A stretch of 64,000 bases of DNA from Nitrosopumilus sp. (GCA_963662625.1 OY759726.1:1504001-1568000), one strand, 5' to 3'. Counted from the stretch's first letter, positions 7,661 to 34,502 are shown. A program made the numbers and translations. Notes: a model not told the origin generated them from the letters alone.

Positions 7661-7665
7661 GACGG

Positions 7666-8889: not shown

Positions 8890-9033
8890 GCAGTCTGGCG
8901 TGTGACATTTCTAATTAATTTTTCCTGGCAGCCAGCGTACATCATTAGGTCCGCGGCACGCGGTTGCCACCTACTAGCCGACACGGGCGATGCGGCTGGC
9001 CGGCACCGCCCCGCCCGATCCCAGTAACCATAT

Positions 9034-9359: not shown

Positions 9360-9369
9360 GGCCCGCGCC

Positions 9370-9782: not shown

Positions 9783-9789
9783 TGGAGAC

Positions 9790-10850: not shown

Positions 10851-11177
10851 GCTCAATGGATAACGGGGCAGGACTGGCGTAAAGATATGGCAGGTCTGAC
10901 AGGGGCCTCATGAGTTGGCTAGAAGGTGAGTCCAAGGGCTGCATGCCTGCAAACAAGAGCCGCGACTTGGATACCGTGTTAAGGCAATCCGTGCCCGCAA
11001 GACTGTTTGAATATAACATGTACGGGATACAGTTAAGCAAAAAGTGGCCTAACCCTGGCATCGGGGGGACGCGCTCTGGCATTGCATCAGCATGAACAGT
11101 GTACAGATCATGGCGCCTTTCACTTAACTGGGATACCTGCAAGATTTATTTACGCCAGGTGCAGACTCTAATGACCC

Positions 11178-16854: not shown

Positions 16855-17013
16855 GGGGCAGGGGTTCCGGCGGCACATATCGGCCACGCTGGCCCCCTGG
16901 ATGAACGCCTGCAGCACCACGCGCACCTTCTCGTCCGTGCTCCGTCGTGCCCTCCCTTGCCCCCATCGCTAAAGCGCGCAGCGGAGATCTGCCTCCTAGC
17001 GGGATCCGCACCG
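16855..17013 (-). mobile_element. IS3-family left-end fragment, an inverted copy of 12807-12980
   Basis: Reverse complement CGGTGCGGATCCCGCTAGGAGG...GAGCACGGACGAGAAGGTGCGCGTGGTGCTGCAGGCGTTC matches TGGTGTGGACCCCGCTAGAAGG...GAGCACGGACGAGAAGGCACGCATGGTGCTGCAGACGTTC. Confidence 0.85.
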
Positions 17014-17102
17014 CATCTCATGCTGAACAAACCCACGACGCTATGCCTCTAGGATGCCGACATGATTTTTTAAGGGCGGCGCCACACGACCGGTGCCGCC
17101 CC

Positions 17103-17519
17103 ATGGTTCCAGACGTCTTCTCGAAGGAAAAAAGATCCGAGGTGATGCGGGGCATAAAGGGCAAGGGCACCAAGCTCGAGCTGGAGACGGCCCGAATGCT
17201 GCGCCGCGCCAAGATCAAGTACAGGTCGCATCCGAAGATCTACGGATCCCCGGACTTTTTGGTGGATGGGAGGCTTCTGCTCTTCTGCGACGGCTCGTTC
17301 TGGCACGGCAGGAATTGGAAGGTGCTGAGGGCGCGGCTAGCCGCCGGCAACGATCCCGGCTATTGGGTCAGGCACATCGAAACCAACAGGAAACGCGACA
17401 GGAAGGTCAACCGGATCCTGGCAGAACGGGGGTACCAGGTGCTCCGGCTCTGGGATACGGACCTGCAGAAGCGACCCGAGAAGTGCGTGGAGAAGATCAA
17501 AAAAGCGCTGCGTTCCTGA
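17103..17519 (+). CDS. vsr: Very short patch repair endonuclease, second copy
   Basis: MVPDVFSKEKRSEVMRGIKGKGTKLE, GSPDF, FCDGSFWHG and GYQVLRLW motifs. Confidence 0.92.
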   Translation: MVPDVFSKEKRSEVMRGIKGKGTKLELETARMLRRAKIKYRSHPKIYGSPDFLVDGRLLLFCDGSFWHGRNWKVLRARLAAGNDPGYWVRHIETNRKRDRKVNRILAERGYQVLRLWDTDLQKRPEKCVEKIKKALRS

Positions 17520-17900: not shown

Positions 17901-18887
17901 TTGGAGAGTAAAATGCATATGAAAAAGGAAACCATGGATATGTCTGACGCTGAACGAGGGATATCGGATATTGCCTCATCCGAAGGCGATTTATCTGATT
18001 TCACAGCAATCTGCAGGTTGATTTGTAATAATCGCGCAATCTCAAAAGACAGACTTTTCAAAATCATCAAGAATTCCATTATAAACAAATCAGACGCCGT
18101 GATTGAGCGAAAATTAAACATTATGTGCAAATTAGACCTGTTAGATTTGGCCAACCAAAAATTTGTACTCCGCGCTAATGGTAAAATATTGGTTGAAATA
18201 AGCAACAAACAATCTGTTTTTTCAGAAAAAATAGAAAAGGCATTTTATTTTATAATATTATTCAGTTCGAAAGCAAGACTGCAACTCACCTCGCTCCTTC
18301 AATCTATAAACGAACAAAATGGAGACGATAAAAGGGAAAACATTGCAAGATATTTTAAAGCAAATATAGTCCAGGAGATATGGAATAAAAAAACAATCGA
18401 AAAGAATCTTACCGCTTTAGAAACAACACAAAGATTGCCAAGCATGCTTAACAATAAATTTTCTTGCATGGAAAAATGGTTAGAGTTTATTGATCTAATA
18501 GAAATAAGAAAAAATGGCCTGCACGCAAATTTGACTTCGGGGCTGATTAGCTCGCTGCTAAACCCAGAAAACAAGAAAAACATATTTGGCGAAGCCGCAA
18601 CAAAGTATTACACCGAATCCAAAGAATTCCGCATTAAGCAGCACTATCGAGATTTGTGTACGTATTTTCTTGAGGGCCATGGTAAATTCCTCACCCCTGC
18701 CGGAATCAGTGACGCCGAAGCAGTAGCAAAATTCGTGTGCTTGCAATTACTCAAATCAAACATAATCTTGGAAGAGAACGGTTTTTTCAAACTGACCAAG
18801 AAATTAAAAAAAGACAAAATCCTTCGCTCAGTAATGATGGGCAGGGACGGCACGCCTAAGAATTTCGGCGTGGATTACTATACCTGA
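17901..18887 (+). CDS. Hypothetical protein of the AT-rich island, possibly winged-helix DNA binding
   Basis: Intact AT-rich 328-aa ORF with wHTH-like segments (MCKLDLL...FVLRANGK; WLEFIDLI). It is convergent with the operon and overlaps its last gene. Confidence 0.6.
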   Translation: MESKMHMKKETMDMSDAERGISDIASSEGDLSDFTAICRLICNNRAISKDRLFKIIKNSIINKSDAVIERKLNIMCKLDLLDLANQKFVLRANGKILVEISNKQSVFSEKIEKAFYFIILFSSKARLQLTSLLQSINEQNGDDKRENIARYFKANIVQEIWNKKTIEKNLTALETTQRLPSMLNNKFSCMEKWLEFIDLIEIRKNGLHANLTSGLISSLLNPENKKNIFGEAATKYYTESKEFRIKQHYRDLCTYFLEGHGKFLTPAGISDAEAVAKFVCLQLLKSNIILEENGFFKLTKKLKKDKILRSVMMGRDGTPKNFGVDYYT

Positions 18888-19971
18888 GAATGTTTTTGTT
18901 CCTAGCGACAAATTCCGAATTAATATGATCGAGATCTTTTTCAGCCGCCTCCCGCACCAGCCGTCCACAGTTGGGGAGAAGAAACCCCGGATAGTGGTAT
19001 TCGGGGCCCATCAGCCCGAATAATCCGTCTAAGGCATCATCACAAAAGGGAAGCAGTTTGTCTCTCTGCGTGTCTGATTCCCCCAAATAAAGACTGTGGT
19101 GAACACGCAAAAACTCTGAAACATGCTCAGCGCCAAGACTGTCAAGCGGCACCAAGTAATCAAATCTTCTTGAGAGCTGCTCGGAAAACCCGATGTCATA
19201 CCACTCGTCTTCTTTCTCAGCTGTAAATGATGCGATTAGCGCAAAATTTTCTGAAAAATCGTCCAGGAGGGCTCTTAAACTGTCGCCTATGGCGTTGCTA
19301 ATTCTGATTGGAGTGTTTTCTAATTCGTCAATGACCAGTACTACCGGCCCAAAATTTTTGCAAAGGTGGGCGATTAGCTCCTTTAGCATCGTTAGTCTTT
19401 TGTAATCGCCGTCTAAGGCATAAGTAATGTCCAATTTGTCAAGCTCTGAGACTGAAAGGCGCTCGCCGAACAACCATTTTTTTGCAAGTTCGGGTTCCCT
19501 CAAATTAGTGCTAATCATATAGAGGGCTTTTGCCAATTCGGTGTTTGGAATTAACTTCTCCCAATTCGCGGTAGAGCCGTTACCATATTTTGCCTTAATA
19601 AAATCTGCTATATTTTTAAGGTTGTTTTTCATGAAATATGAAATGGCTTCCCTATACATTACTGAAAAAGATGGTTCTACTGCAGGGATCAGCGTGTAGA
19701 TAAAAATGATGTTCTGGGAACCGTGCGAGCGTCTGACTAGCTCCTTGCTGATGATTTTCGTAAGCCAGGTTTTGCCGCTGCCTGTCTGGCCAAAAATTCT
19801 CATTCCCACGCGAGCCCCCCCCGAAACATCCTCCAAAAACTGATCCAATTTTTTCCTTGCGTCCGCCAAGTCCGGCCTATCCCACTCGAGAAATTTTTCA
19901 TCAATCTTGTAAGGGTTGGTTGATTCGTAGGGATTTTGAACAAAATGGTACTTTTCAAAATATCTGGACAT
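18856..19971 (-). CDS. P-loop AAA+ ATPase (BrxD/Cdc6-like architecture)
   Basis: Walker A GQTGSGKT, Walker B VLVIDELE and a candidate Arg finger QLSRRF. Confidence 0.8.
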   Translation of the reverse strand: MSRYFEKYHFVQNPYESTNPYKIDEKFLEWDRPDLADARKKLDQFLEDVSGGARVGMRIFGQTGSGKTWLTKIISKELVRRSHGSQNIIFIYTLIPAVEPSFSVMYREAISYFMKNNLKNIADFIKAKYGNGSTANWEKLIPNTELAKALYMISTNLREPELAKKWLFGERLSVSELDKLDITYALDGDYKRLTMLKELIAHLCKNFGPVVLVIDELENTPIRISNAIGDSLRALLDDFSENFALIASFTAEKEDEWYDIGFSEQLSRRFDYLVPLDSLGAEHVSEFLRVHHSLYLGESDTQRDKLLPFCDDALDGLFGLMGPEYHYPGFLLPNCGRLVREAAEKDLDHINSEFVARNKNILRYSNPRRNS

Positions 19972-20004
19972 GATTTTACTGATCTCGTATTTTGTACCCT
20001 TGTC

Positions 20005-20475
20005 TTATACTTTTCCTTGTATTTCGCTAATGTATTTCTGGGCATTTGAGATGAGATCGCACCGCTCGTTTTCTATGAATATCCCCGCCTCTTTATTTTC
20101 GTGAATCGCGGTATTACTAATGTTTAAGCTTGAAACTAAAAGGCTGTCAGTAGCGCCTGTTAGCAAAACCATCTTTGCGTGTACTGATCTTCTAAACATA
20201 ATGGTCACTCCTAGGTTTTCAATCAAGTCAGAAACAAATTCCTGCTCAGTAGGATCATTTTTGAGCGTTCTTTTGTTTATTATGATTATGACCTTTACCT
20301 GACTGCGGATCAACTGCTCCAATTTTTTACGAAATGGCACTCCGTTAATTGTGGCGTTGTGAATGTGCTGGCTAACGATTTTAAGTTGCTTCAGGCCCCT
20401 CCTTGCGGTTATCATTTGGTTTAGGCGAAATTCTAGGGAATGGCCGGAAACAAATTCTATCACCATGCATCTCAC
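20005..20475 (-). CDS. Single-domain phospholipase D-family (Nuc/DpdK-like) protein
   Basis: HAKMVL...SSLNIS...ENKEAG matches HxK-x(n)-SxN-x(n)-NxE. Confidence 0.8.
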   Translation of the reverse strand: MRCMVIEFVSGHSLEFRLNQMITARRGLKQLKIVSQHIHNATINGVPFRKKLEQLIRSQVKVIIIINKRTLKNDPTEQEFVSDLIENLGVTIMFRRSVHAKMVLLTGATDSLLVSSLNISNTAIHENKEAGIFIENERCDLISNAQKYISEIQGKV

Positions 20476-20498
20476 CCTGTATTTTTTATCCCACGATC

Positions 20499-21527
20499 TT
20501 ACTGCCTCATGTTTTTTAAGGATTTAAACAGGCTTGCAAAATTCGTTTTTCCCATGATTCTTTCAACGTATTCGTCGTAGCGGTTCTCGTGAATTAGCTT
20601 TCTTGCCTTCTTTAGCTCCTGCTGGTGAGTCCAAGCGTTGTGAATCGCCCTGGCGTAAAAATCATCCTCCAGCCCCTTCATACCATGGCGCCTGCACATG
20701 GGGCACCTGCAGTTTTCCAGCTTTTTCCCCTCTTCTTTAGAAAGCCGCGGGTATAGTTTTTTTCTTGCCACCTTTGAAACCCACCTGTCGCCCATCCCGG
20801 GCATCTGGATTGCGCCAAACGCCGCCTTTGTCCTCCAGGCAGAACTGTCAAGGGAGTCTGCGCCAGCATAGTACATCAAGTGCATCGTGAGCGTGCCGCC
20901 TGTGCCAAAAACGTGCAGTTTTGCCCTAGGAATTTGCTTTCGAACCTCCAAGATCACCTTCATTACGTTGAGGATCCCGCCCACCCCCTTGACGTTATAC
21001 ATGGCAGGAACCAGGCTGCCAATGCCGTAAATTGGGAACCTGTCGATTTTTTTCAGCCTTTTCACATAATCCCGAATTTCTCCTGCGTCATAACCATGAA
21101 TAACCGGCACCAGAACGGGATTTTTTGTAACTTTGTTTTTTAGCATGATCCTTGTATTTTGTAGCGTTTTTGATTTCCGCCTTTCGTTTTCTTCTTTAGG
21201 TAGGGTGGGAAACAGGGGATGGTCCAAAACCACGCCAAAATTTGGTTTAGCCCTTTCGTAGAAACCAATAATTTCTTCTGCAGAAACATCCATGTGTTTT
21301 CTTTTCATGAATAAAAACCCGCCAGAATCCATCATGATCGGACCACGAAATCCCAAAAAGCCATGAATTTTTTCCTCTTGCGCTGTTTTGAATGCGTGTG
21401 GGTGCTGCATAAAGTCATGCGCATTCATTAAAACACCACCCACTCTGAAATAATTCCAAGGCGCGCTCTTTTTATCTGCGACCATTTGGCTAAACCACAG
21501 CATCGGGTATTCTATTTTGTGTTTCAT
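20499..21527 (-). CDS. tRNA-guanine transglycosylase (TGT)/DpdA-like protein lacking a PUA domain
   Basis: MMDSGGF, VLDHP, PVIHG, GIGSLVP, LHVFG, GADSLDSS (catalytic Asp) and a Zn site CRCPMC...H. Confidence 0.88.
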   Translation of the reverse strand: MKHKIEYPMLWFSQMVADKKSAPWNYFRVGGVLMNAHDFMQHPHAFKTAQEEKIHGFLGFRGPIMMDSGGFLFMKRKHMDVSAEEIIGFYERAKPNFGVVLDHPLFPTLPKEENERRKSKTLQNTRIMLKNKVTKNPVLVPVIHGYDAGEIRDYVKRLKKIDRFPIYGIGSLVPAMYNVKGVGGILNVMKVILEVRKQIPRAKLHVFGTGGTLTMHLMYYAGADSLDSSAWRTKAAFGAIQMPGMGDRWVSKVARKKLYPRLSKEEGKKLENCRCPMCRRHGMKGLEDDFYARAIHNAWTHQQELKKARKLIHENRYDEYVERIMGKTNFASLFKSLKNMRQ

Positions 21528-22258
21528 GTCGTCTTTATCTGCCTAAGAAGCGATTTGAGCACCTTTGGGTGGGCCACACCGTACATGTCCCATGCAAATG
21601 TACCGCGCTCGTTGACCAGGTTTTTAATTTGATTTTTTGTTGGTAATATTTCTATGTCTAAATGATATCTCCGAGATGCTAATTCCAACATTCTCCTATG
21701 AGTATGATCGTCTTTTTGATCCAAAGCAGAAGAGTACGTTCTCACACACGCGATTATTTTTTTGTATTCTTGTCCTACTCTTTTTAGTGTCTTTCCAACA
21801 TTGTCAGAAATAATCTCAATGCTTCTATCCAAGTATTCTTTATCGTACTCTTGCTTGTATCGACGGCACCACCATTCAAAAAGCCCTGGGCAATCATACC
21901 ATTCGAACCCAGAAAAATACTGGTCTGGTACTAACCCGAAAGGCTCTGAAATAGTCATCACCTGAATTTGCTCTCTTTTTCCATTAAGCCTATCTAGATA
22001 TTGGTACAGCTGTTGGTATGAGCGTGATCTGTTGTATGGCTTAACTGTAGAGCATGGATAAATCAGCAAAACGTCTTTTCTTTCTGGGACATACGTTTTG
22101 GCCATGAAATTATGCCATTTTTTGATATCCGGGTTGGACGCTAGTCCTTTGTAGACCTCTTCTGGCGAATAGAAGCACAGGGACTTCTTAATTTTGACAC
22201 CTTTGCCAACTCTGGAAGAAACTGTTCGGTATAGTTCTAACTTTGACATTTCCACCAC
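21524..22258 (-). CDS. DUF5591 / archaeosine synthase (ArcS) core-like protein
   Basis: PCSTVKPYNRSRSY, ISEPFGLVP and YDCPG motifs. It overlaps the TGT-like gene by 4 bp. Confidence 0.75.
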   Translation of the reverse strand: MVEMSKLELYRTVSSRVGKGVKIKKSLCFYSPEEVYKGLASNPDIKKWHNFMAKTYVPERKDVLLIYPCSTVKPYNRSRSYQQLYQYLDRLNGKREQIQVMTISEPFGLVPDQYFSGFEWYDCPGLFEWWCRRYKQEYDKEYLDRSIEIISDNVGKTLKRVGQEYKKIIACVRTYSSALDQKDDHTHRRMLELASRRYHLDIEILPTKNQIKNLVNERGTFAWDMYGVAHPKVLKSLLRQIKTT

Positions 22259-22279
22259 GGTTCAATGTGTACGGGGGTT

Positions 22280-25200
22280 CTAGCCATGATCTTCCACCTC
22301 GTCCGAATTCAAGGCAATGCCTAACTTGACAAAGCCTTTCTCATACAATATTTGAACAGATTTTGTAACGGCAGGATCAAATAAATTATTGCCAACTTTG
22401 TTTAGTCCCGGTTCTAGCTTTCCCGGATCCACGTAATCCTTTCCAGATGATACGTCCGAAACGAGTTGTAATAAACCGGCAGATCCTCTGTCGATATCTA
22501 ATTCTTGGATAATTTTTTTCATGAAAACATCTCTCCGCCTATTTAATTCATTGACCATTTTAATCCATGTCATTTTATTCATCCTTTGTAAATGGTCTTT
22601 TAATTTACTTGAAAATTTTTCGAAATCCATTCTTGATTCTATCAAGACAACTTGCTTTGATTCAGGTAAATTTTTTGAACAGATATTTACAAAATTAACG
22701 AGTGTTTTTGTTTTCGCTTCGACAGCTTCGATAAATTTTTTAATAATTTCATGCAACGCTATATTGATCTGCTCTATTTGCTCACTCAAATCCTTCATGT
22801 TAGAATTAATCTCTGTCACGCATTTAACAAATATCACAATTTCTGATAAAGACGTTGGCAGTTCTAAATATTCTTTATTGGCAGAATTCAAAGATTTTTT
22901 CATATCATTAATTTTCTTTTGGATTGCCACAGTGTTGATCGTTGAGTCTGACACATCTTCAGAACCCACTATAAAGTCACTTAAATCCTCTAAACATTTT
23001 TTACATTCCTCATAATGCTTAAGGAAAGTGCATTCATGCTGATCCACTTCTTTTATTTTCTCTAATATTTCGCCCCTGCGTTGATTAAAAGCTGCTAGTT
23101 TTTGGCTAACAGTAGAAAAATACTCTTCAATTTGTTTTAAATCCTTTATTTTTGTGGTTTTTGGAAGTGCCGGTGGTTTGATTTGGGTAGCTGACTTGTG
23201 TAGGCCGCTGGAAATTTTATGTGCACTCGGAAAAACAAAAGTTGCGGTTGCAGCCTTAATTTCTCGGTAGGATTCCTTGATACTTTGTGCAAGGCTATTG
23301 GTTTTGTCAGTTGTGCGCTTCATCGCGTCAAGTTCAGCATCAAAACATTCTACAGCCTTTTTTAGATTATGATAGGGTAAGCTAAAGTAATATGCATCGT
23401 CAGCACTTTTCTCAAAATAAAAGGCGGATTTTTTATGATCTTTTTTAGAGTCTTTCATCCCTATAGATTGAGTTTCTTCTGTGACGAGTCTTCGTTCGTA
23501 AGTTTTTTCATATTCGCTCTGAACTAAATCGACAAATTTCTTTTGGATGCTCTCCAAAATAATTTCAGAAGTGATATGTTGTTCTTTATTGGATACTAGC
23601 TTGTTAAATGTTAAAATAATTTCATCTATTTGATGTTTATAGCTTTCAAATTTAGACATGGTATCCTTGAATAATTTGGCTTTTTGGTTATTTGCCTCGG
23701 TAATTATTGGACGAACATTTTCTTGATAATAATCGTAAATTGCAATTATTAATTTGGAAAGACGAAGCTCTTCGTCACCGTCTGAATCATTTTTTTTATC
23801 AAGTAATCCTTGTAAAACATGAATGTAATCTGATTCACTTATTACCCTACATTCTCTCATTTTTGTTTGCGAAATAAAGTGACCGTTTGAATTATCTTGA
23901 GGATATGATTCATTCATGTATTTTTCAACAGCATTAATTTTTGGTTGAAATACTGCATCGCCCTTCTTTATTATGGCGTAAGTGTTATTGGTTTTTCTAA
24001 TTTTTCCCTTCTGGATCAATGTGTTTAGATAATAATTCTGCAATGCTCCCTCGGCGTTAGACTGGTTTACGAATTCCTGTTCCAGTCCAGCCTGTGAATT
24101 TTTATTTTTTCCTAGTAATCGAATAACCCTTTTTTCTACAGGTGTGTCAACTGACATGATTACGGAGTTAATGTCCTTTAAAAATTGGTTGTTAGTTAAT
24201 CCATATGCCCAAGATTTCCATTCGTCTTTAGTTTCAATATCTATCGGGCAAAATGATCCTTTACTACCAAATAACTTGATTGATTTTAATTTTTTATAAA
24301 ACTCCCATTGCTCATCGATTGGAAAATTGGATGTACTTATAAAAGAAGAGATCGCTTCTCTGATACTGCTCTTACTGTAATCTCCCAATTCTTTGAGTAA
24401 CGGAATTATGATTCCGGAAGCTTCCGCCTTTGGAATCCAAAAATTTTCAATGCGTTGCTTCAGCTTTAATTCATTTATTATTGCAGAAATGCGGGATTTT
24501 TCAGTGATGCGATTAATTTGGATTTTTTCCACTTTTGCACGTTTCCAACAAAGTAACTGCTCGACATTAATTCTGTCTATTGGAATTCGCTGAATCTCAC
24601 CCACACCCTCCAGTAATTCATGAACGGGTTTTTCCAAATGTGTTTGGTAGAATAACAAAGTCAGAACTGCAGGAGTGGCATCAACAAGCTTTCTAATTTT
24701 ATCAATTTTTTCTACAGAAATATTCTCGATGATTCCTTCAATTATAATGGGAATTGGATTGTCCCGTTCATTTAACTTTAAAAGAAAATACTCCTCCTGC
24801 GGCTCACAATTAATATCTGAAAGTTTTATCGCATCAATTAGTGCGTACTTGAGATCATGATGAATCTTATCACGGTTTTTCACATCCCCCAAATCCCTTT
24901 GGATTTTTCTTCTTAACTCTAGCCGTTTACTTCTGTCTTTAATAAAATCAAATTTAATTAAGTTTGGAGATGGAAAGACGTTTTCTAGAAGATTTACTGA
25001 AACACGGTAAAATCTATTCGAGGTATCGAAATTATTTTTCACGGAATGATAGAATTTTCCAGCAATGGTACTATCAATACCTAACAATCTAGATAATTCG
25101 TGTGGGTCTTTTGGAATTACAATCTCTTTATCAAAATAATTCTTTGATAAATTACTGCTTATAACATAGTTTGTAAATGATTCTTTTAATGTAGCGATCA

Positions 25201-26554
25201 GGATAGAATTATAGTCAACAGTTATGTACTGATTCTTGCCTTGTTCGATTTTTGTATAGTTTGATAAAATTGAATCGAAATCCCGCCCTTCTTTCAATTT
25301 ATAATATACCCCAAAAGCAGAATCAAGTTTGTTTTGGTTTTGAAGATTTTCATTAATTTGATTAACCAAATTGCTGATATCTTTTTTAGGAATACTTAAT
25401 CTTTCAGAAATTTCATCGATGGAAAAGGCCTTGTTTTCTCCTGTTAGCAATTCAAAGATTTTAATTAATTTTTCCGAATTTCTCCTTGAATTACTTAATG
25501 ACTTTCTGAAACCATCTAGCATGTTAGCTTCAATTGCGGACGTGGATGATCCATAAACGGAAACTTTGACATCATTTAATTCTTTAAACAGCTGTGTGTA
25601 ATCAATGCAGCATATCGTGGTTTTATCATAAGGGATCGCCTTGCTCATTAGCTTGTAGAGCAGCTGGATTAATGCCCTGGGGTTTCTTTGAGAAATATTT
25701 ACAATAGTTTCAAAAATCCCGGCACTAGCAATTGGCAACTTTTCTAATTTTCCAGCATAGCTAACTTTTACTAGCTCAGATAAAAAGTGGTAGCAATCAA
25801 ATCTCGAGAGGAGAGGTAATTCAATCAAATTGTAGGCGAGTCTTTGTTCAGTGCTCCCCATTACTTGAGAAAAATTAGGATCTTCAGTAATCGTATTCCA
25901 TGCATACGGCGTACACGCAACAAAGATGTGCAACCTTCCCTCGTATTTACCTCCTTCAGATAATGATCCAAATTTTTTGTTGATGACTTCTTTAATTCCT
26001 GAAATCACATCAGCTTTAATATCCTCATTGTAGAGAATTTCTTCAAACTCATCTAAAAATAAATACATTTTTTTTTGATTATTTTCAAACAATTCTGCAA
26101 GTTTTTCATTCAGATATCTTACTGGATCTTTTATCATATCTTTGTAAAACAGTCCTTTATCTCCCTCCTGAGAATATAGATCGTCACCCACTGCAGTTAA
26201 TAATGCTGTTAAAAAATTGGTGGCGGTGTTTGAATGATGCGTATAGCTTTCATTCCTACGTAATTTCTTTGCCAGTGTACTGGTAGATACCGAATAGCAA
26301 TAGTGATGTTTTAGAACCGTTGAGATATAGCGATCAAATGCATCAGTCTTACCTTCCCCCCATTCTGCTTTAATCAGACATATCTGGATGTTCTTATCAT
26401 TACGAGTTTTTTCAATAAAGCCGTCGATTAAATTCGCGACTGATTCGCGCCCAGGAATCTTTGCATTTTTAACTCCTTGGAAAGGAACGCCTTTGGGGTC
26501 TGGTAGATTTCTGAGATCGAAAACTGGTGCAGTGCTAACCATCCTAACCCTCAC
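22280..26554 (-). CDS. Large (1424 aa) P-loop ATPase with HTH-like and long coiled-coil regions, BrxC-like in size and layout
   Basis: Walker A AEWGEGKT, Walker B YLFLDEFE, HTH-like FSIDEISERLSIPKKDI and a heptad-rich C-terminal third. Confidence 0.75.
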   Translation of the reverse strand: MRVRMVSTAPVFDLRNLPDPKGVPFQGVKNAKIPGRESVANLIDGFIEKTRNDKNIQICLIKAEWGEGKTDAFDRYISTVLKHHYCYSVSTSTLAKKLRRNESYTHHSNTATNFLTALLTAVGDDLYSQEGDKGLFYKDMIKDPVRYLNEKLAELFENNQKKMYLFLDEFEEILYNEDIKADVISGIKEVINKKFGSLSEGGKYEGRLHIFVACTPYAWNTITEDPNFSQVMGSTEQRLAYNLIELPLLSRFDCYHFLSELVKVSYAGKLEKLPIASAGIFETIVNISQRNPRALIQLLYKLMSKAIPYDKTTICCIDYTQLFKELNDVKVSVYGSSTSAIEANMLDGFRKSLSNSRRNSEKLIKIFELLTGENKAFSIDEISERLSIPKKDISNLVNQINENLQNQNKLDSAFGVYYKLKEGRDFDSILSNYTKIEQGKNQYITVDYNSILIATLKESFTNYVISSNLSKNYFDKEIVIPKDPHELSRLLGIDSTIAGKFYHSVKNNFDTSNRFYRVSVNLLENVFPSPNLIKFDFIKDRSKRLELRRKIQRDLGDVKNRDKIHHDLKYALIDAIKLSDINCEPQEEYFLLKLNERDNPIPIIIEGIIENISVEKIDKIRKLVDATPAVLTLLFYQTHLEKPVHELLEGVGEIQRIPIDRINVEQLLCWKRAKVEKIQINRITEKSRISAIINELKLKQRIENFWIPKAEASGIIIPLLKELGDYSKSSIREAISSFISTSNFPIDEQWEFYKKLKSIKLFGSKGSFCPIDIETKDEWKSWAYGLTNNQFLKDINSVIMSVDTPVEKRVIRLLGKNKNSQAGLEQEFVNQSNAEGALQNYYLNTLIQKGKIRKTNNTYAIIKKGDAVFQPKINAVEKYMNESYPQDNSNGHFISQTKMRECRVISESDYIHVLQGLLDKKNDSDGDEELRLSKLIIAIYDYYQENVRPIITEANNQKAKLFKDTMSKFESYKHQIDEIILTFNKLVSNKEQHITSEIILESIQKKFVDLVQSEYEKTYERRLVTEETQSIGMKDSKKDHKKSAFYFEKSADDAYYFSLPYHNLKKAVECFDAELDAMKRTTDKTNSLAQSIKESYREIKAATATFVFPSAHKISSGLHKSATQIKPPALPKTTKIKDLKQIEEYFSTVSQKLAAFNQRRGEILEKIKEVDQHECTFLKHYEECKKCLEDLSDFIVGSEDVSDSTINTVAIQKKINDMKKSLNSANKEYLELPTSLSEIVIFVKCVTEINSNMKDLSEQIEQINIALHEIIKKFIEAVEAKTKTLVNFVNICSKNLPESKQVVLIESRMDFEKFSSKLKDHLQRMNKMTWIKMVNELNRRRDVFMKKIIQELDIDRGSAGLLQLVSDVSSGKDYVDPGKLEPGLNKVGNNLFDPAVTKSVQILYEKGFVKLGIALNSDEVEDHG

Positions 26555-28223
26555 CTAGTAAACCCTTCACTACATCAGTAGTTCCAGCAGTGTGTGGGAT
26601 CACCCTGTCATTTGAGCTCACTTTAATCGTTAATGGAATGGGTAATTTTTTGGACATTTGCCCCGTAACAATTACTTGGCCTTGAGAAAGATTCGTTAAT
26701 TTGTTTTCTCGTGATTTAGGCAAACCTCCTGTCACTTTTCTCACAAAACTAATATCACCAAATGCGATTCTATGGATAAAGAATGTATTTACCATGGAAA
26801 CGACCACTTCATCTAAAAATGCAGGTCTTTGAGAGATGAGGCATAACCCAATTCCAAATTTTCTTCCTTGTGTTGCAATAACGTGTAATTTTCTTCTAGC
26901 TAATCCTGCACCTACCTTGTACACGGAATCATTGGGTATATAGTTATGTGCTTCCTCAATTGCAAAAATAATGTATTTCTTTGCTTTATCAGTTTTATAG
27001 CGGGTGAAGGTTTTATAAATTAAAGATGCGAAATACCCCACTACTGCTTGCTTTAACTCTGGGGAAATTCCCGGCGCGCCATCAGATGAAAAATCTATTA
27101 TTGCAATTTCGCGGTTATTTGTAAGTTTGTCAAGGAAATTACGAGTAATTGTGGGATCCTCATCGAAAAGTTTTGATGTTAAAGCTTCGCGTCTAAATTT
27201 TTCTAATGCTCTTCGTATTGCACCTGCAACAGAACTATGAATTTCTGGATTTTTACCAGTTGAGAAATCGTTTAATTTAGTAGTTATGCGTTCGAATTTG
27301 GCTTCATCAGTGAATAACTCACTATAACGGAATTCTGGAGGTTCTTGGTTTGGATTTCCGATATCATTTTGTAGTTCCATATATTCAATCACTCTTTCCA
27401 GTCCCGTAATTTGAAGTTCGGGCAACTCCCCACCCGTATAAAACTGCATTATGATTTCCGCTAATTCAGTTCGTGATAGTGTACCTAGATCAATTCTTAG
27501 TTCAGCGACGTTTGCATCTCCTCGTTGTGTGGATACAGGGAAAACATATCGTGTAATATTTTTACACGCGCCATCTAAACTATCTCCATTAACTGCATAA
27601 TCAGTATAGTCGCCATTAGAATCTATTATCAGCATGGGCATAGCTACTAGTCGGGTTGGTCCTGCAGGGACATTCACAAATTTTTCAATCAGTGCACCCA
27701 CGTTGTAGGATTTCCCACTACCAGTAGTCCCAAAAACTGCCATATGCATCGGTATTTCTTCTATACTCAGCGGAATTGGGGCCTTTTGATATCCAAGTAG
27801 TGTACCATACCACACGTATCCTGGTTCGTTTCTTCCAATCCCAAAAATCGTTTCAGGATCAGACACGTCAACTTCAAAAACAGGGTCGCCTGGCAGCGGA
27901 GGATGGTTAAGCAGGGCCAGATGTGGAATTTCGCCTAAAAGCTCCAGTGTACAGGTTACATATTGCCGGGCTACGTTTGAAGGGATACTGAAATCCTTTC
28001 TTCTGGATTCTGACCACGCATCCCCTTTGGTGTAGAAATCATTGTGAGGTTCTACGCTTTCTACATGAGCAAGAATGTCTTTGCCTCTAGATTCAATTAA
28101 GACTAATTTGCTCTCCGTTATTTTATGCTCAAAGTTTTCAAATAACTGAAATTTTGCTTCAGAAGAAGAACCGGCAGTGAGGATGACTCCTATTTTATCC
28201 CCTTTTGGGTTTCTGGCCATCAA
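26544..28223 (-). CDS. herA: HerA-family ATPase/translocase
   Basis: N-terminal HAS-barrel-like region, HMAVFGTTGSGKS, IEEAH and GRKFGIGLCLISQRP. Confidence 0.92.
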   Translation of the reverse strand: MMARNPKGDKIGVILTAGSSSEAKFQLFENFEHKITESKLVLIESRGKDILAHVESVEPHNDFYTKGDAWSESRRKDFSIPSNVARQYVTCTLELLGEIPHLALLNHPPLPGDPVFEVDVSDPETIFGIGRNEPGYVWYGTLLGYQKAPIPLSIEEIPMHMAVFGTTGSGKSYNVGALIEKFVNVPAGPTRLVAMPMLIIDSNGDYTDYAVNGDSLDGACKNITRYVFPVSTQRGDANVAELRIDLGTLSRTELAEIIMQFYTGGELPELQITGLERVIEYMELQNDIGNPNQEPPEFRYSELFTDEAKFERITTKLNDFSTGKNPEIHSSVAGAIRRALEKFRREALTSKLFDEDPTITRNFLDKLTNNREIAIIDFSSDGAPGISPELKQAVVGYFASLIYKTFTRYKTDKAKKYIIFAIEEAHNYIPNDSVYKVGAGLARRKLHVIATQGRKFGIGLCLISQRPAFLDEVVVSMVNTFFIHRIAFGDISFVRKVTGGLPKSRENKLTNLSQGQVIVTGQMSKKLPIPLTIKVSSNDRVIPHTAGTTDVVKGLLGEG

Positions 28224-29389
28224 TGAACATCTCCCATCATTTTCATTTGAATTATGTTTTCCACATCTTCATTACTCTTAGAACCGGTAATAAATTCCCT
28301 AAATAATATGTCTGCCGCTCCTTGTCCAATATTGCACTTTTCATGTGCTAAAATCACAGGAATAGGGATGTGTCTTCCGGGTGCAGCCCACCTAACGATA
28401 GATTTGATTGCTTCGATTACTAAATCATTTTTAACAAATTTTTTGCTTGGAGACAACGCAATATCTACACGAATAGGGCTGGAGACATAGCCATTTGCCA
28501 TCAGAAATGTTAAAACATCCACACCATTGTTCTGATATTCATTTGCGGCTTTTTTACCAATTTCGCCAGTTTTTCCTTTAGAGTTAATCTCTGAAAGTAA
28601 AATTGGTTCAGTGTAAGCAAGACAGTCTTTATCATTTTTTAGATACTCTGTAAAAATATGTACTGCTAAATTTTTATCTGAAAGCATATTTTCAAATTCA
28701 ACTGATTCGCTTAAAGGAAAAAATGATTTGTAATGGTTGGAGAATAATGTTCCGCTAATTCTTTTTACGATTCCAATTAACTGTGCTCCTCTCGAAAAAC
28801 CCTGTTTGATCGCAAATGTCCTTCCTTCAACGTATTGTTTTTGATTTTCGAACGGAGGATCAATAATTGGACCATCAAGAAAAATAATTCCATCGCTTTC
28901 TTTTTTCCTAGACATCGCCGTAACCTTTAACGCTTCTGTTTCCATATCCATCATGAATTTTTCCGCCGCAGCGCCTGCGCCTTTCTCGTCAATTTGATTT
29001 ATTGTTCGAATTGCTGGAGTTACTAGAACATCAACGTCAGAATCATAACCTTGGGGATACCTTATTCTTGCGACGCTGTAAAAAATCATCCACCCGCCAT
29101 CTGGTCTGGGGTATTTTTGCAGACTTCCATCTACGGCATCTGTAAGCGTTTTGGCATATTCAGAAAGATCTGTTTTTGTCAAATCCATTTTATGAATAAT
29201 GCTTTTCGAAACCATTAGTGAGAGAGCTTTCTTAGCACTTTTGCGATATTCTTTGGCAGATTGCTTCATTGCCTCGGATTGTTTTGATGTTTCCTCAACA
29301 AATTTTACCATGGCTTCTGCAGGAAGCTTGTTGAAGCTAAGCATGTTGAGTTCTCTACGAAGCTGTTCTTCTTTGTATAAATCAGGCAT
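28220..29389 (-). CDS. nurA: NurA-family 5'-3' nuclease
   Basis: AVDGS, FLDGP, GIVKR and PxPVILAHEKC motifs. It overlaps herA by 4 bp. Confidence 0.85.
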   Translation of the reverse strand: MPDLYKEEQLRRELNMLSFNKLPAEAMVKFVEETSKQSEAMKQSAKEYRKSAKKALSLMVSKSIIHKMDLTKTDLSEYAKTLTDAVDGSLQKYPRPDGGWMIFYSVARIRYPQGYDSDVDVLVTPAIRTINQIDEKGAGAAAEKFMMDMETEALKVTAMSRKKESDGIIFLDGPIIDPPFENQKQYVEGRTFAIKQGFSRGAQLIGIVKRISGTLFSNHYKSFFPLSESVEFENMLSDKNLAVHIFTEYLKNDKDCLAYTEPILLSEINSKGKTGEIGKKAANEYQNNGVDVLTFLMANGYVSSPIRVDIALSPSKKFVKNDLVIEAIKSIVRWAAPGRHIPIPVILAHEKCNIGQGAADILFREFITGSKSNEDVENIIQMKMMGDVH

Positions 29390-29410: not shown

Positions 29411-29425
29411 TGTTTATAATATTTT
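29411..29425 (-). promoter_or_regulatory. Probable archaeal TATA box of the nurA operon
   Basis: TTATAAA on the minus strand 24-30 nt upstream of the ATG at 29389, consistent with a leaderless transcript. Confidence 0.55.
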
Positions 29426-29828
29426 AGTGTGGATAATGCGGCAGTCTGTACACATGATAACCAACCAGACGTATCTGCATCAACGGATCGACTCTTTGCA
29501 TGTGGGCCCAGTGCCCTTGAGCTTGAGTGGGGCAACCGAGCTGGTTGTGTATTGGGCCTAGTGCCTTAACAGGCGTGTGTATATTCCTGCCCGTCAGACA
29601 TTTGAAAGGATGTGATGGGAAAGGATTAGAAAGACAAGCACAGGGATAGACATAGGGGAGGAAAACTGCGACATGTGCATGGTGGATATGCCGGGACGAT
29701 CCTCGAGGGAGGGCATTACCCCAACACCCGGGACGGAGCGTGGAAGTTTGTGAGAGTGATGGCGCGCAGGTGCCTGGGGGCGGCTCCCGGAGCATAGAAA
29801 ATAAAAGTATCATGCGTACCTGAAACCC

Positions 29829-31886
29829 ATGCGCCTGGCAAGCTTTCATATAAAGAAGTACCGCTCCATCGAGGACTCTGGTGAAATACGAGTTGATGAA
29901 AACGTCACGACTTTTGTAGGGATCAATGAAAGCGGCAAGACAAACGTCCTGCGAGCACTAAAGAGGCTAAACCCTATAGAGGACACCTGCTTCAATGATC
30001 TTGCCGAACAGCCCACATGGCACTTTGAAAGCATGGATCCGGAGGAAGTCTTCGTCACCGCAACTTTCAAACTAAGCGGTAAAGAAAGAGACAGGGTTAG
30101 TGAAATCAGCGGCAGGCTGGTGCAACTAGACGAAGTCAAGTTCAGCAGGAGAAAGAATATGAATCTTATTTGTGATCTTGAGGCCGAGCAAGAGGCGATC
30201 CACTTTGATGCGTTTGACAGGAACTACCTGCAACCCATACTCGCCATCCTTAACTCTGTTAATCCGAACGCCTTTGAGCGTGGTCAGGGGCAGAAGGACA
30301 TCATCATAGGAATATTCGAAGACATAGTACATGGTTACGAAGGGAAGTCAAACGTGAGGCAGCCACAAACCCTTGCTTCAATAAAGCAACGCATGAAGTA
30401 TTTCACACACACGTTATCTGTAATTTCGGGCGACCACGCAAAAAAAGCCTCGATTAATTCTGCGATTGAAAGGATATACTCCGAAGTGACGGAGGATCCT
30501 ACAGAAAAAATAAAGGAATACCTTGTCAAAGCTCTGCCCCGGTTCATTTATTTTGCAAACGTTGCCATAATAGACAGCAGGATTCACCTGCCGACGTTTG
30601 TCAAAAAACTTGATGCGAGTGGGCTGAGCGAAGACGAAAAAACTGCAAAGACTCTACTGGATCTGGCAGGTTTGGACGCAAAAGACCTGCACAAGCTAAG
30701 CACGGATGGAAATGACCGCGCAGAGGTTCGAGAAAACCATGACAGGTTGGATAGGTTGCTGAGTGGCGCATCAACGAAGGTCTCCAACGAGATTGACAGT
30801 ATCTGGGATCAAAACGACCACGACATAGAGTTCAGGGTTCAAGGAGAGAATTTCAGGGCATGGGTGATCGACAGGAAAGACAAGACAAAACTCCAACTGG
30901 AGGAGGGAAGCAGGGGATATCGGTGGTATTTTTCCTTCTACGTGATTTTCAGCGCAGAATCAAAGGGGAGACACAAAGACGCGATAATTTTGCTTGACGA
31001 GCCGGCGCTGTACTTGCACCCGAAGGCGCAGTCGGACCTTCTCAAAAACGTGCTTCCAAAGATGGCGGAAAAAAACCAGATCCTATACACCACGCACTCG
31101 CCTTTCATGGTGAACCTGAGTGATCCGGCCAGCATCCACACTGTCACGCTAAAGGACATCGAACTGGAAGGCCGGGCCGCTAGGAAAGTCACGCAGATAT
31201 CTGACAAAGTATGGGACGACGACCGCATGGCACTGTTCCCATTACAATCTGCGCTTCATTACACAATGGCACAATCTATGTTCATCGGCAAAAAAAACCT
31301 CATAGTGGAAGGCGTCACAGATCTTTGGATGCTGGGCGCTGCTTCGGCCCTCTTGGAATCTGCCGGCAAAACTCATTTGAAGCAGGATTTCGTGCTTGTC
31401 CCGGCCGGGGGAGCAACCAAGTCGGTATTCTTTGCGAGCACGTACAAGTCACAGGGATTGGACGTCGCGGTCCTGCTTGACGCCGATCCAGAGGGGGAAA
31501 CTGCACATGACTTGCTTGTTAAGAACAAGGTACTCCGAGGTCAGAAGGTCGTCCTGATCAACGAGATGCTGGGCAAGAATGGCAACATGTCGATTGAAGA
31601 CGTGTTTCCGGAGGATTACTACCTGAAATTCGTAGAATCAGCCTATCAAAATGAACTCAATGAAAAGAAAATCGAAAGAATCACGCTTACGTCGCAAGAT
31701 CCGATGGTGCTGAGGAGAATAGAAGAATTCTTCAGGGAGAAAGGCCTGCCAGAATTCCACAAGGGTAGGCCAGCGCGTGCTATACTGGAAGAGTTTGGTC
31801 AAGCCGATACGAATGCCCTTCCTGAGGTTCTTATCTGCAGGCTTGAGAAACTGTTTGCGGGGATTAACAAACTGATGGGCGGTTGA
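29829..31886 (+). CDS. OLD-family ATP-dependent nuclease (ABC ATPase plus TOPRIM)
   Basis: GINESGKT, SRGYRW, LLDEPALYLHP and TTHSPF, followed by TOPRIM LIVEGVTD...LLDADPEG...SIED. Confidence 0.88.
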   Translation: MRLASFHIKKYRSIEDSGEIRVDENVTTFVGINESGKTNVLRALKRLNPIEDTCFNDLAEQPTWHFESMDPEEVFVTATFKLSGKERDRVSEISGRLVQLDEVKFSRRKNMNLICDLEAEQEAIHFDAFDRNYLQPILAILNSVNPNAFERGQGQKDIIIGIFEDIVHGYEGKSNVRQPQTLASIKQRMKYFTHTLSVISGDHAKKASINSAIERIYSEVTEDPTEKIKEYLVKALPRFIYFANVAIIDSRIHLPTFVKKLDASGLSEDEKTAKTLLDLAGLDAKDLHKLSTDGNDRAEVRENHDRLDRLLSGASTKVSNEIDSIWDQNDHDIEFRVQGENFRAWVIDRKDKTKLQLEEGSRGYRWYFSFYVIFSAESKGRHKDAIILLDEPALYLHPKAQSDLLKNVLPKMAEKNQILYTTHSPFMVNLSDPASIHTVTLKDIELEGRAARKVTQISDKVWDDDRMALFPLQSALHYTMAQSMFIGKKNLIVEGVTDLWMLGAASALLESAGKTHLKQDFVLVPAGGATKSVFFASTYKSQGLDVAVLLDADPEGETAHDLLVKNKVLRGQKVVLINEMLGKNGNMSIEDVFPEDYYLKFVESAYQNELNEKKIERITLTSQDPMVLRRIEEFFREKGLPEFHKGRPARAILEEFGQADTNALPEVLICRLEKLFAGINKLMGG

Positions 31887-32150
31887 GTTGGAGTACAGCA
31901 CAAGTGCACGAGGCGGGATTTCTGCCATGTGATTTACGTGATCAGGATCCGTCCCGAAATACACCGAGATGTCCAAAAACACCCCCGCCACGAGCCCCGT
32001 GCCGCAGGCGCAGGTCAAGACCTGCCCTCGCATACAACATGGTGGCACGGTGCTGTGGATGTTTGCTGGGACGGCGTTTCGCTTGCCTTCCCACAATGGC
32101 AACCTCGCGCAAGAACAAGGCATTTATGCCCGCCGGGCCGAACCCACAGC

Positions 32151-33173
32151 TTGGACGAGGGGGTCCCGGGGGGCCGGGCCTACGAGAGGTTCACGGCGGG
32201 CCCGGGCCTCAGCTACTACAGGCCGCGCAGGGCGGTAACCGAGGGGGAGTTCGCGCGCGAGGTGTCGGCGTCGCTGGGCCGCGACCCGAAGTCGATCCCC
32301 CCGAAGTTCTTCTACGACAGGAGGGGCTCCGGCCTGTTCGAGCGGATATGCTCCCTGCCCGAGTACTACCCCGCCCGCACGGAGATCTCGCTGCTCGGGG
32401 GGCTCGCCGGCGGCCTGCCTGGGCACCTGGACGGGGGGTTCAGGCTGGTGGAGCTCGGCAGCGGCTCGTCCGTGAAGACGAGGCTGCTCATCGACGCGCT
32501 GGGCGGGTCCCAGTGGCCGGTCGAGTACTTTCCCATAGACGTCTCCGAGGTGCTCGAGGAGAGCTCGAGGCGCCTCATCGCCGACTATGACGGCCTGAGC
32601 ATCACGGGGATAGTCGACACGTACGAGGCGGGCATGGAGTTCCTCGGGAAGCTCGACGACAGGCGGAACCTGGTGGCGTTCCTGGGCTCCAGCTACGGCA
32701 ACTTCCTCCCCGCGGACGGCGCGGCGTTCCTCGGGGCGCTGCATTCCGCGATGGGGCCGGGCGACCTGTTCCTCATCGGCCTCGACATGGTCAAGGACGC
32801 GGCGGTCCTGGAGGCCGCCTACGACGACCCCCTCGGGGTGACCGCGGAGTTCAACCTCAACGTCCTGTCCAGGATGAACCGGGAGCTCGGGGCCGACTTT
32901 GACCTGGGGAGGTTCGAGCACCACTCCACGTACAACGCCGCCGAGCGGCGGATCGAGATGTACGTCCGGTCGCTTGCCGACCAGTCGGTCCGCATCCCCG
33001 CGTGCGGCATGACGGTGCGGCTGGGCCGGGGCGAGCTCATCCACACGGAGTACTCTTACAAGTTCACGCCCGGGCAGGTCCGCTCCGTGCTGCGCGGCGC
33101 CGGGTTCGGGGTGAGGCAGACGTGGCGGGACCGCAGGGGCTACTTTTCCCTGACGCTCGCGTCCAGGGACTAG
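32151..33173 (+). CDS. egtD: L-histidine N-alpha-methyltransferase (start uncertain)
   Basis: PKSIPPKFFYD, LPEYYPARTE, ELGSGSSVKT, AYDDPLGVTAEFNLN and IHTEYSYKF. Confidence 0.93.
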   Translation: MDEGVPGGRAYERFTAGPGLSYYRPRRAVTEGEFAREVSASLGRDPKSIPPKFFYDRRGSGLFERICSLPEYYPARTEISLLGGLAGGLPGHLDGGFRLVELGSGSSVKTRLLIDALGGSQWPVEYFPIDVSEVLEESSRRLIADYDGLSITGIVDTYEAGMEFLGKLDDRRNLVAFLGSSYGNFLPADGAAFLGALHSAMGPGDLFLIGLDMVKDAAVLEAAYDDPLGVTAEFNLNVLSRMNRELGADFDLGRFEHHSTYNAAERRIEMYVRSLADQSVRIPACGMTVRLGRGELIHTEYSYKFTPGQVRSVLRGAGFGVRQTWRDRRGYFSLTLASRD

Positions 33174-34480: not shown

Positions 34481-34502
34481 CGCGGATCGCCGCCCCCCAT
34501 GC

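Follow-up and report, generated by a model that had tools for sequence, protein, structure and literature searches.

Which process brings genes for a NurA nuclease and a HerA translocase together with a giant ATPase and two enzymes of 7-deazaguanine type in an AT-rich block of an archaeal genome? We address this question for a stretch of 64,000 nucleotides of Nitrosopumilus sp. (GCA_963662625.1 OY759726.1:1504001-1568000; this whole stretch is called the window below), where the block occupies positions 17901-29389 and where a preliminary description, made from the sequence alone, had proposed a new defence operon. The host genome (1.86 Mb, one contig) was scanned, and domains were called with Pfam, NCBIfam, PADLOC and PHROG profiles, bit scores being compared with the cut-offs of the models. 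The genome is archaeal, with 1456 bits for the archaeal SSU model and 1085 bits for the bacterial one. Judged by sequence, the block holds a real, conserved, mobile cassette that most likely represents a new form of restriction-modification based on deazaguanine, in which the restriction module is novel. The cassette genes encode NurA, HerA, a giant P-loop protein (Giant), a standalone ArcS core (DUF5591) and a paralogue of tRNA-guanine transglycosylase (TGT), joined here by three accessory genes for a phospholipase D-type protein (PLD), a small ATPase and a protein read convergently:

28220-29389, minus strand: NurA (nurA), first gene of the cassette, 389 aa
26544-28223, minus strand: HerA (herA), hexameric-type ATPase/translocase, 559 aa
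22280-26554, minus strand: Giant, 1424 aa, listed start GTG
21524-22258, minus strand: DUF5591 (standalone ArcS core), 244 aa
20499-21527, minus strand: TGT, catalytic domain only, 342 aa
20005-20475, minus strand: PLD, single HKD, accessory, 156 aa
18856-19971, minus strand: P-loop ATPase, accessory, 371 aa
17901-18887, plus strand: convergent gene, no known family, accessory, 328 aa
29425-29413, minus strand: TATA-like element AAAATATTATAAA, ~30 nt 5' of the nurA ATG, read from the sequence

The open reading frame (ORF) list, the GC profile and the lengths of homologues confirmed the AT-rich block of ~11.5 kb with seven co-oriented intact ORFs and a convergent eighth gene that had been described before, and the TATA box placed in front of nurA corresponds to the element listed above. 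GC content per kb is 0.34-0.45 over 18-29 kb versus ~0.65-0.72 in most flanking and host kb, and the means of the cassette (0.38) and of the window flanks (0.63) are 25 points apart; the genome as a whole is of 63-70% GC. All block gene lengths fall inside the range of homologue lengths, hence the genes are regarded as intact; the true start of the convergent gene is probably near residue 14-19. The 4-bp overlaps reported for nurA/herA (28220-28223) and DUF5591/TGT (21524-21527) follow from the ORF coordinates. Moreover, herA overlaps the GTG start of Giant by 11 bp, and the remaining intergenic gaps measure 21-33 bp.

Conserved synteny of a five-gene core

Screening of species-representative genomes with a TGT family alignment yielded 22 loci, 14 of them with usable context, and ten of these 14 hold NurA, HerA, Giant and TGT (eight of the ten also DUF5591). 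The metagenome-assembled genomes concerned are labelled Methanodesulfokora, Bathyarchaeia/Bathyarchaeota, Thermoproteota, Thermoplasmata, Methanobacteriaceae and Archaeoglobales, with one bacterium, Crocinitomicaceae. Furthermore, 80 metagenome loci were found through TGT. DUF5591 or a short form of it adjoins TGT in 61 of the 63 loci with at least 800 nt upstream, and NurA, HerA and Giant are all present in 22 of the 25 with at least 9 kb upstream (16/19 after dereplication at 90% TGT identity), the exceptions being L063, L086 and L122. The cassette genes thus co-occur across many archaeal genomes and metagenomes; a search for conserved synteny had been proposed in the preliminary description. 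Its seven-gene operon stood in part: the system recurs, but the conserved core consists of five genes, NurA, HerA, Giant, DUF5591 and TGT, whereas PLD, the 371-aa ATPase and the convergent gene accompany TGT at five places only (the window, L004, L010, L112 and L132).

The core genes are found in four orders (a co-linear one, a divergent one and two in which the nuclease block lies downstream), and the DUF5591-TGT pair and the NurA-HerA-Giant block stay whole in every one of them. Spearman correlations of pairwise identities were calculated for 25 dereplicated loci; these values are confounded by shared ancestry and descriptive only. Within the blocks they reach 0.92 for NurA-HerA, 0.80 for HerA-Giant, 0.76 for NurA-Giant and 0.80 for DUF5591-TGT, compared with 0.25-0.53 between the blocks and 0.25-0.34 for Giant against the writer pair, DUF5591 and TGT. 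Because its divergence tracks NurA-HerA and not the writer pair, Giant looks like a component of the restriction side rather than a scaffold of the writer. The earlier suggestion of an ATPase scaffold for the writer therefore does not seem to hold for Giant; it is the small ATPase whose relatives recur beside TGT paralogues on haloarchaeal plasmids.

The cassette is foreign to its host and was acquired horizontally. Giant was found in none of 40 relatives, 2 of which come from the genus, 22 from the family and 16 from the order of the host, and at other cassette loci the GC content of the cassette agrees with that of the flanks. The nearest full cassette (L062) shares 68% identity in TGT, 59% in DUF5591, 36% in NurA and 32% in Giant, while the closest HerA, with 50% identity, is encoded in L072; the relatives of the writer half are thus much closer than those of the nuclease half. 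Neighbours at other loci encode TIR proteins, PIN, AAA_15/21, NERD, KAP and integrases.

The cassette might also be an instrument of a mobile element, in which the writer would shield the DNA of the element or virus from host restriction, and NurA-HerA-Giant would be used for replication of the element, end processing, packaging or exclusion of rivals. Viral DpdA/ArcS2 homologues are anti-restriction devices (PMC10516641), integrases lie near L004, L011, L014 and L015, HerA also matches a terminase family of PHROG (5e-11), and in L008 (7498-11705) a TGT of the family is flanked by genes for a primase-polymerase/D5 helicase and for a QueT transporter. The latter locus carries neither DUF5591 nor the nuclease block and suggests that a mobile element employs the transglycosylase. 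For the cassette as a whole such a role seems unlikely, as 2.9 million viral contigs yielded a single distant relative (27% identity), genes for capsid, portal or replication do not recur beside the cassette, and the neighbours are mostly defence genes. In addition, the window block contains no integrase, and neither a tRNA gene nor flanking direct repeats were found at the island borders.

The writer pair and its predicted substrate

TGT was assigned through PF01702 (E 1.2e-25) and aligns to residues 43-333 of the 582-aa chain of P. horikoshii ArcTGT (1iq8, E 1.7e-19), whose C-terminal domains (C1-C3/PUA) it lacks. In this alignment D67, D102 and D227 stand opposite D95, D130 and D249 of 1iq8, and the C-x-C-x2-C...H zinc site is kept. 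D67, D102, D227, C275, C278 and H296 are invariant in 21/21 family members and C273 is nearly so; we take the aspartates to be catalytic and the cysteines and histidine to form the zinc site. The family (335-356 aa) gave 237 matches at E<=1e-5, and the few named ones come from diverse archaea. The window protein scores 105.8 bits against the TgtA model (cut-off 350) and 57.4 bits against DpdA of NCBIfam (NF041059, cut-off 200). Since it remains under both cut-offs, it belongs to the superfamily as a separate clade and not as a DpdA equivalog.

DUF5591 was recognised by PF17884 (E 2.4e-13) and by the NCBIfam ArcS model (2.9e-13, well under the cut-off), and it is the sole DUF5591 in the host genome. 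The C1 motif of ArcS has been given as PC-x3-KPY-x2-S-x2-H (PMC10516641), and the window protein carries it as PCSTVKPYNRSRSY. In 12 sequences the C, K, P and S of this motif are invariant and Y is nearly so, and the final H is Y in the long form of the protein and H in short forms. Residues C69, K73, P74, S78, E105, P106, Y121, D122, P124 and H187 are invariant even when ArcS2 of the virus STSV2 is included. The long form (~245-280 aa) is extended by a C-terminal region absent from viral and short forms, and the short form (175-186 aa), which replaces it in two species-representative loci, aligns with STSV2 ArcS2 and retains the motif.

Within the phage collection, the best matches of TGT and of DUF5591 are adjacent genes of the Sulfolobus viruses STSV1, STSV2 and STSV4, with 29-31% identity (STSV2_15 and STSV2_16 in STSV2). 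These relatives were named DpdA and ArcS2 in a study that also reports dCDG in STSV2 DNA (Cui et al. 2023, PMC10516641). According to the same source, DpdA2 of Vibrio phage nt-1 alone leads to dPreQ0 in plasmid DNA, and to dG+ when ArcS2 is added (PMC10516641). The resemblance of the TGT and ArcS-like genes to DNA-modifying viral pairs is thus substantiated, as the two cassette genes are adjacent, homologous to STSV2_15 and STSV2_16 and keep C-x3-KPY-x2-S. They differ from the pairs of STSV1/STSV2 and nt-1 in setting: the viral pairs are solitary anti-restriction devices, whereas the cassette pair is joined to a nuclease-translocase module in cellular genomes.

Precursor genes are found beside several cassettes, namely QueC in L004, QueT in L008 and L010, and QueC or QueT in the metagenome loci L083, L089, L090, L106, L123 and L134. 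Elsewhere in its genome the host encodes a TgtA with a full score (464 bits, cut-off 350) and also a QueC-family protein (130.5 bits, just under the cut-off of 150.3; an ORF of 366 aa with an N-terminal extension of 145 aa), so that a preQ0-type substrate is probably available and the tRNA role is covered. From these relationships we infer that DNA is the substrate, and the chemistry of the mark can be predicted: TGT would exchange guanine in DNA for a preQ0-type base from the host QueC pathway, and the ArcS2-like DUF5591 would turn the nitrile into an archaeosine-type or related derivative.

The NurA-HerA-Giant module and competing explanations

NurA matches PF09376 (E 4.4e-10, 39.9 bits versus a cut-off of 21), and it is the sole Pfam NurA match in the host genome. 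Its motifs D87-G88 (D-G-S), E150 and D172-G173-P174 (D-G-P) are invariant in 12 cassette homologues. HerA contains DUF87 (E 3.5e-26), matches the HerA model of PADLOC (3.8e-35) and has Walker A and Walker B motifs; its best PDB sequence is S. solfataricus HerA (4d2i, 4.2e-19). Its scores lie far under the cut-off of every NCBIfam HerA equivalog (NF042944, 73.7 bits versus 850; NF042943, 56.5 bits versus 800).

Giant has an N-terminal P-loop NTPase domain with Walker A GEWGEGKT and Walker B FLDEFEE, and the invariant residues of its family include Walker A W-G-x-G-K and Walker B D-E-x-E-E. Weak winged-helix matches were obtained near residues 360-410 and 837-869, and ~1060-1360 is helical or coiled-coil. 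The window protein has only a sub-threshold match to a P-loop family (nSTAND5, 22.9 bits versus a cut-off of 34). No Pfam family exceeded its cut-off in 11/11 and 32/32 members, and the precomputed Pfam field is blank for 40/40 database homologues; the only recurrent signal consists of weak N-terminal AAA_16, AAA_22, KAP and nSTAND matches, and one member carries an NYN RNase domain. Among 1.84 billion representatives the family comprises 271 (E<=1e-3), mostly of 1390-1600 aa, and a profile of the N-terminus revealed no bridge to a named family among the best 150 of these 271. By these sequence criteria Giant is a closed family outside any described one, and its profile met only coiled-coil or low-complexity matches among PDB sequences. 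Atlas look-alikes of one Giant homologue are nSTAND1+Mrr proteins (0.89-0.94), which we treat as a lead only. The 371-aa ATPase and the Giant N-terminus were also considered as paralogues, and the similarity was too weak (hhalign 22.7%, E 9e-4).

When 400 other genomes of the phylum were searched, 16 gave Giant matches at E<=1e-5, mostly weak or partial ones, and three of the seven genomes with the strongest matches (G420, G234 and G372) have the cassette or its remains. In G372 (L056, contig C33), fragmentary HerA, Giant (~560 aa), TGT and DUF5591 matches at 6584-12359 look like a degraded cassette. In G257 (L055) the distance between Giant and a HerA-NurA pair is ~5 kb; no TGT was found in the 20 kb examined, and a short TGT paralogue lies on a different contig.

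Combining both modules, we propose that Giant, as a STAND-like NTPase with winged-helix domains, would sense DNA and control HerA and NurA, and that the HerA translocase and NurA nuclease would degrade DNA without the mark, which implies a putative self/non-self logic and a defence function. A mobile, mostly archaeal restriction-modification-like system based on 7-deazaguanine, acquired horizontally by this host, is the explanation we consider fairly probable. In its more specific form, put forward tentatively, it would be an undescribed, chiefly archaeal immunity in which an archaeosine-type mark protects the chromosome and a re-purposed HerA-NurA end-resection machine, steered by Giant, destroys unmarked DNA.

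Several observations weigh against this restriction-modification reading. The NurA profile matched no PDB sequence at E 0.01 and thus reached no solved NurA, which indicates a very divergent protein. By profile score TGT is closer to the tRNA-type TgtA than to bacterial DpdA, although below both cut-offs. Its family-alignment profile also matches short TGT genes (frames of 300-386 aa) in five Thermoproteota genomes, which may be tRNA enzymes; the missing C-terminal domains are therefore not decisive. A gene for preQ0 synthesis is missing from the window cassette. In L004, L086 and L122 the writer pair is not accompanied by the restriction block, and in L008 and L063 TGT occurs alone. Such writer-only loci fit orphan modification modules but equally an independent function. 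Giant is not exclusive to the cassette either: a Giant-like gene without NurA, HerA or a neighbouring TGT is present in three genomes of one genus (G150, G281 and G205), and a distant homologue in 5/5 sampled genomes of one family. Lastly, a TGT-family enzyme can act on protein, as reported for deazaguanylation by Cap10 in a type IV cyclic oligonucleotide-based antiphage signalling system (CBASS; bioRxiv 10.1101/2025.04.06.647259), with which a 2026 preprint on ParA agrees as far as its available text goes.

Solitary Giant-like genes of 1388-1507 aa were found in Thermoproteota at L051, L052 and L053 (the three genomes of one genus named above) and at L057-L060. The flanking ORFs are similar in size across the three genomes of that genus. 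These genes hint at a function of the family beyond the cassette.

Loci in which the halves are separated, namely those with the writer pair alone, the solitary Giant-like genes and the TGT-free L055, together with the weak co-divergence across modules (0.25-0.53), could also mean that two independent systems travel together, a NurA-HerA-Giant defence and an uncoupled deazaguanine module for DNA or RNA. We regard this as quite improbable, since 22/25 loci, spanning phyla and four gene orders, have the modules adjacent, usually in the same orientation and either overlapping or with little space between the genes, a linkage much tighter than is usual among neighbours in defence islands. A housekeeping role was likewise considered, with a split ArcS/TGT pathway of tRNA archaeosine synthesis and an ordinary NurA-HerA pair for break resection. 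TGT scores best against the TgtA model, the genome holds no other DUF5591 and no other Pfam NurA, and the PUA domain of ArcTGT has been reported as dispensable for activity. The host, however, has a full-score TgtA, the block has a foreign composition and no Mre11/Rad50, Giant is missing from all the relatives compared, and the cassette is sporadic in the phylum, all of which makes a housekeeping role extremely improbable.

If protein were the substrate, TGT and DUF5591 would attach or process a 7-deazaguanine on, for example, Giant or HerA, the DNA would stay unmarked, and the modification would be a regulatory switch for the NurA-HerA effector, comparable to the action of Cap9/Cap10 on the type IV CBASS cyclase. 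Besides the precedent above, this would agree with the tight linkage of TGT to the effector module and with a weak match (E 5.9e-4) to the PADLOC model named 'TGT', which we take to belong to CBASS. The DpdA model of PADLOC, however, matched far better (1.3e-15, over part of the model), the core cassette has no QueC-family partner, and the complete catalytic and zinc residues of ArcTGT are retained. Moreover, TGT is paired with an ArcS core, the known homologues of which have preQ0 in nucleic acid as their substrate (PMC10516641), and the nearest viral relatives come from a virus with modified DNA. We therefore think it unlikely that the writer pair serves protein modification.

Accessory genes, related systems and implications

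The window PLD matches PLDc_2 (4.1e-9) and, in PADLOC, DrmC (4.9e-9) as well as the MkoC model; H99, K101, S115 and N118 are invariant in 4 homologues. The 371-aa ATPase is BrxC-BrxD-like (AAA_22, E 5e-6). No match to Pfam, NCBIfam, PADLOC or PHROG was obtained for the convergent gene, homologues of which adjoin the ATPase in L004 (65% identity) and L010 (31%). The ATPase family comprises 23 proteins in a database of 5.8 billion, 8 of the 22 other relatives lie on contigs equal in size to those of TGT/Giant matches, and one marginal match was found in the 400 genomes of the phylum. Because this family is so rare and linked to TGT and Giant, the trio is regarded as an add-on specific to the system and not as a general neighbour. 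PLD would serve as a second or back-up nuclease.

In L004 the order is QueC, DUF5591, TGT, PLD, ATPase and convergent gene, with 64-72% identity to the window over the five common genes, DUF5591 and TGT included, and no NurA-HerA-Giant was found within 9 kb upstream or 7.4 kb downstream in this locus. Two matches at other loci are interrupted: PLD in L112 (13254-13766) crosses 1 stop codon and DUF5591 in L131 (9232-10011) crosses 2, each representing either a decayed copy or a tblastn range that overruns the gene.

A related arrangement was observed on 3/3 haloarchaeal plasmids (L144, NZ_CP119991.1; L146, NZ_CP073372.1; L147, NZ_CP106970.1), which carry a TGT paralogue, a hypothetical gene and an ATPase. 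The module encodes a ~968-aa protein (annotated as queuine tRNA-ribosyltransferase on two plasmids and as hypothetical on the third), a 344-aa TGT paralogue with 26-28% identity to the window TGT, a hypothetical protein of ~295 aa and a 385-aa 'BREX system ATP-binding' ATPase. Two of the plasmids have annotated QueE and QueD genes next to the module, and the third lists a QueD-family gene only. The ATPase of the first plasmid (Halobaculum) aligned with the window ATPase family over its full length (hhalign 97.3%, E 1.8e-11). NurA and HerA are not annotated in the module, tblastn of the first plasmid found neither and only a weak P-loop match of 70 residues to Giant, and DUF5591 was not detected. 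The 968-aa and 299-aa proteins were tried as kin of Giant, DUF5591 or the convergent gene and proved unrelated. The likeness to the window thus lies in the TGT paralogue, the homologous ATPase and the deazaguanine synthesis genes, and the difference in the middle gene, which is unrelated to the convergent gene. The module looks like another candidate archaeal module for deazaguanine in DNA. Since the ATPase recurs there beside TGT paralogues, the small ATPase may serve the transglycosylase and would help it to act on DNA, by analogy with DpdB and DpdA.

Two further loci with TGT relatives were examined. On the Aulosira laxa plasmid AP018313.1 (L145, 3790-11008) a TGT-like gene (29% identity, 93% coverage) is preceded by a 584-aa gene, a 'putative exonuclease' and a 1041-aa P-loop protein. 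This locus was rejected as a bacterial copy of the cassette, as the neighbours match neither the NurA nor the Giant profile, and it may represent an analogous case in which TGT is coupled to another kind of machine for processing DNA ends. Another TGT-containing defence-type locus is that of an uncultured archaeon (L016, 22-15198), with two tandem TGT paralogues (33% identity to the window TGT), a helicase C-terminal fragment with an MrfA Zn-binding domain, a 985-aa STAND-like NTPase, a PLD/NgoFVII-type endonuclease, an N6/N4 DNA methylase and an AIPR protein.

Domain calls upheld the setting of the block among restriction-modification, Vsr and OLD genes, and the window is a defence island with the following further genes:

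70-3240: Type ISP restriction-modification specificity domain fused to SdrD-like repeats
4948-5895: C5 cytosine methylase
16947-17519: Vsr endonuclease fused to a DUF559/MTES_1575 domain
29829-31886: OLD/Gabija-like ATPase-TOPRIM gene (OLD family)
55386-56693: AAA_21/AAA_15 ATPase

The OLD-family gene was rejected as a member of the system, an OLD gene being near just 1/80 loci (L128). A 141-aa ORF at 29424-29849 matched no family, lies in a GC-richer spacer and is probably not a gene. Directly past the OLD gene, ergothioneine synthesis genes of host GC mark the host side of the island border: an EgtD-like histidine methyltransferase (31929-33173, plus strand, E 3.5e-101) and an EgtB-like FGE-sulfatase/DinB protein (33170-34585, minus strand).

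The earlier statement that the gene set is neither Dpd nor BREX (bacteriophage exclusion) was upheld: no PADLOC system matched as a set, and the PADLOC check gave no full match. The cassette is like Dpd in that a TGT paralogue is tied to a multi-gene island with a host preQ0 supply, a PLD-type protein and ATPases, and in the proposed restriction-modification logic, which would be analogous. No cassette protein, however, matched PADLOC DpdB-DpdK (the library is assumed to hold all models), and DpdB (ParB-like ATPase) and DpdC (DUF328), which in Dpd serve insertion and conversion to dADG, had no Pfam or PADLOC match in the 8 cassette proteins. The second enzyme is an ArcS core here and DpdC in Dpd, the restriction side is NurA-HerA-Giant in contrast to SF2 helicases, and the hosts are almost all archaea. 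On sequence grounds we thus consider the cassette analogous to Dpd and not a member of it.

Judged by the text of its description, BREX-related capture (BRC) is the nearest published architecture (NAR 2026, PMC12839542). BRC shares the HerA/FtsK translocase and a STAND-type NTPase, has TGT in a subset, where it is proposed to mark self DNA, and occurs sparsely in archaea and bacteria (PMC12839542). It is defined by PglZ, DUF6079 (BrxC-like) and DUF4007 (BrxA-like), with GNAT in a subset (PMC12839542), and a scan of the cassette proteins and of two neighbours gave no match to PglZ, DUF6079 or DUF4007. Conversely, the text of the description contains no NurA, and no ArcS/DUF5591 component is seen in the part available (PMC12839542). 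Archaeal HerA-NurA end resection uses the same HerA and NurA families; Mre11 and Rad50 are not among the eight genes of the block, which is flanked by OLD and Vsr. The anti-phage systems SIR2-HerA and DUF4297-HerA likewise pair HerA with an effector enzyme; the cassette differs from them in lacking SIR2 and DUF4297 and in having a deazaguanine writer and Giant in addition. Type IV CBASS with Cap9/Cap10 also has a TGT-family enzyme within an immune operon, as far as its description goes (bioRxiv 10.1101/2025.04.06.647259), whereas the cassette core has neither a CD-NTase nor a QueC-family Cap9, and the PADLOC 'TGT' match is weak.

No paper was found that combines TGT/deazaguanine with NurA-HerA in one system, in a literature search whose scope excluded supplements, figures and most subscription journals. 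The text of the DndFGH/HerA capture paper names no NurA, TGT, transglycosylase, deazaguanine or ArcS, and a 2026 NurA review, in the part available, touches on defence in general terms, with reference to bacterial NurA-HerA. The 2026 preprint on deazapurine mining and the preprint on the QueC family contain no HerA, and the latter also no NurA. The restriction module is most likely novel, and for the gene set no published description was found.

In a 2025 review of restriction-modification (PMC12707154), the part available names one host-encoded 7-deazaguanine mark, ADG of the Dpd island (Thiaville 2016), and says of the restriction side of Dpd that it 'has not been further explored'. The Dpd island is described as bacterial (Gedara 2023). 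With its recognisable effector enzymes, the cassette provides a second and compact case in which both halves of such a system could be dissected. If the proposed function is true, it would extend deazaguanine marks in DNA to archaeal chromosomes, as the first cellular, non-viral one in archaea, and would be the first restriction module built on NurA-HerA. It would also provide a concrete role for the widespread NurA-HerA pairs outside repair, and a context for a closed family of ~270 clusters of giant NTPases unnamed in databases. Moreover, annotations as 'tRNA-guanine transglycosylase' in archaeal islands and plasmids may conceal DNA-modifying enzymes.

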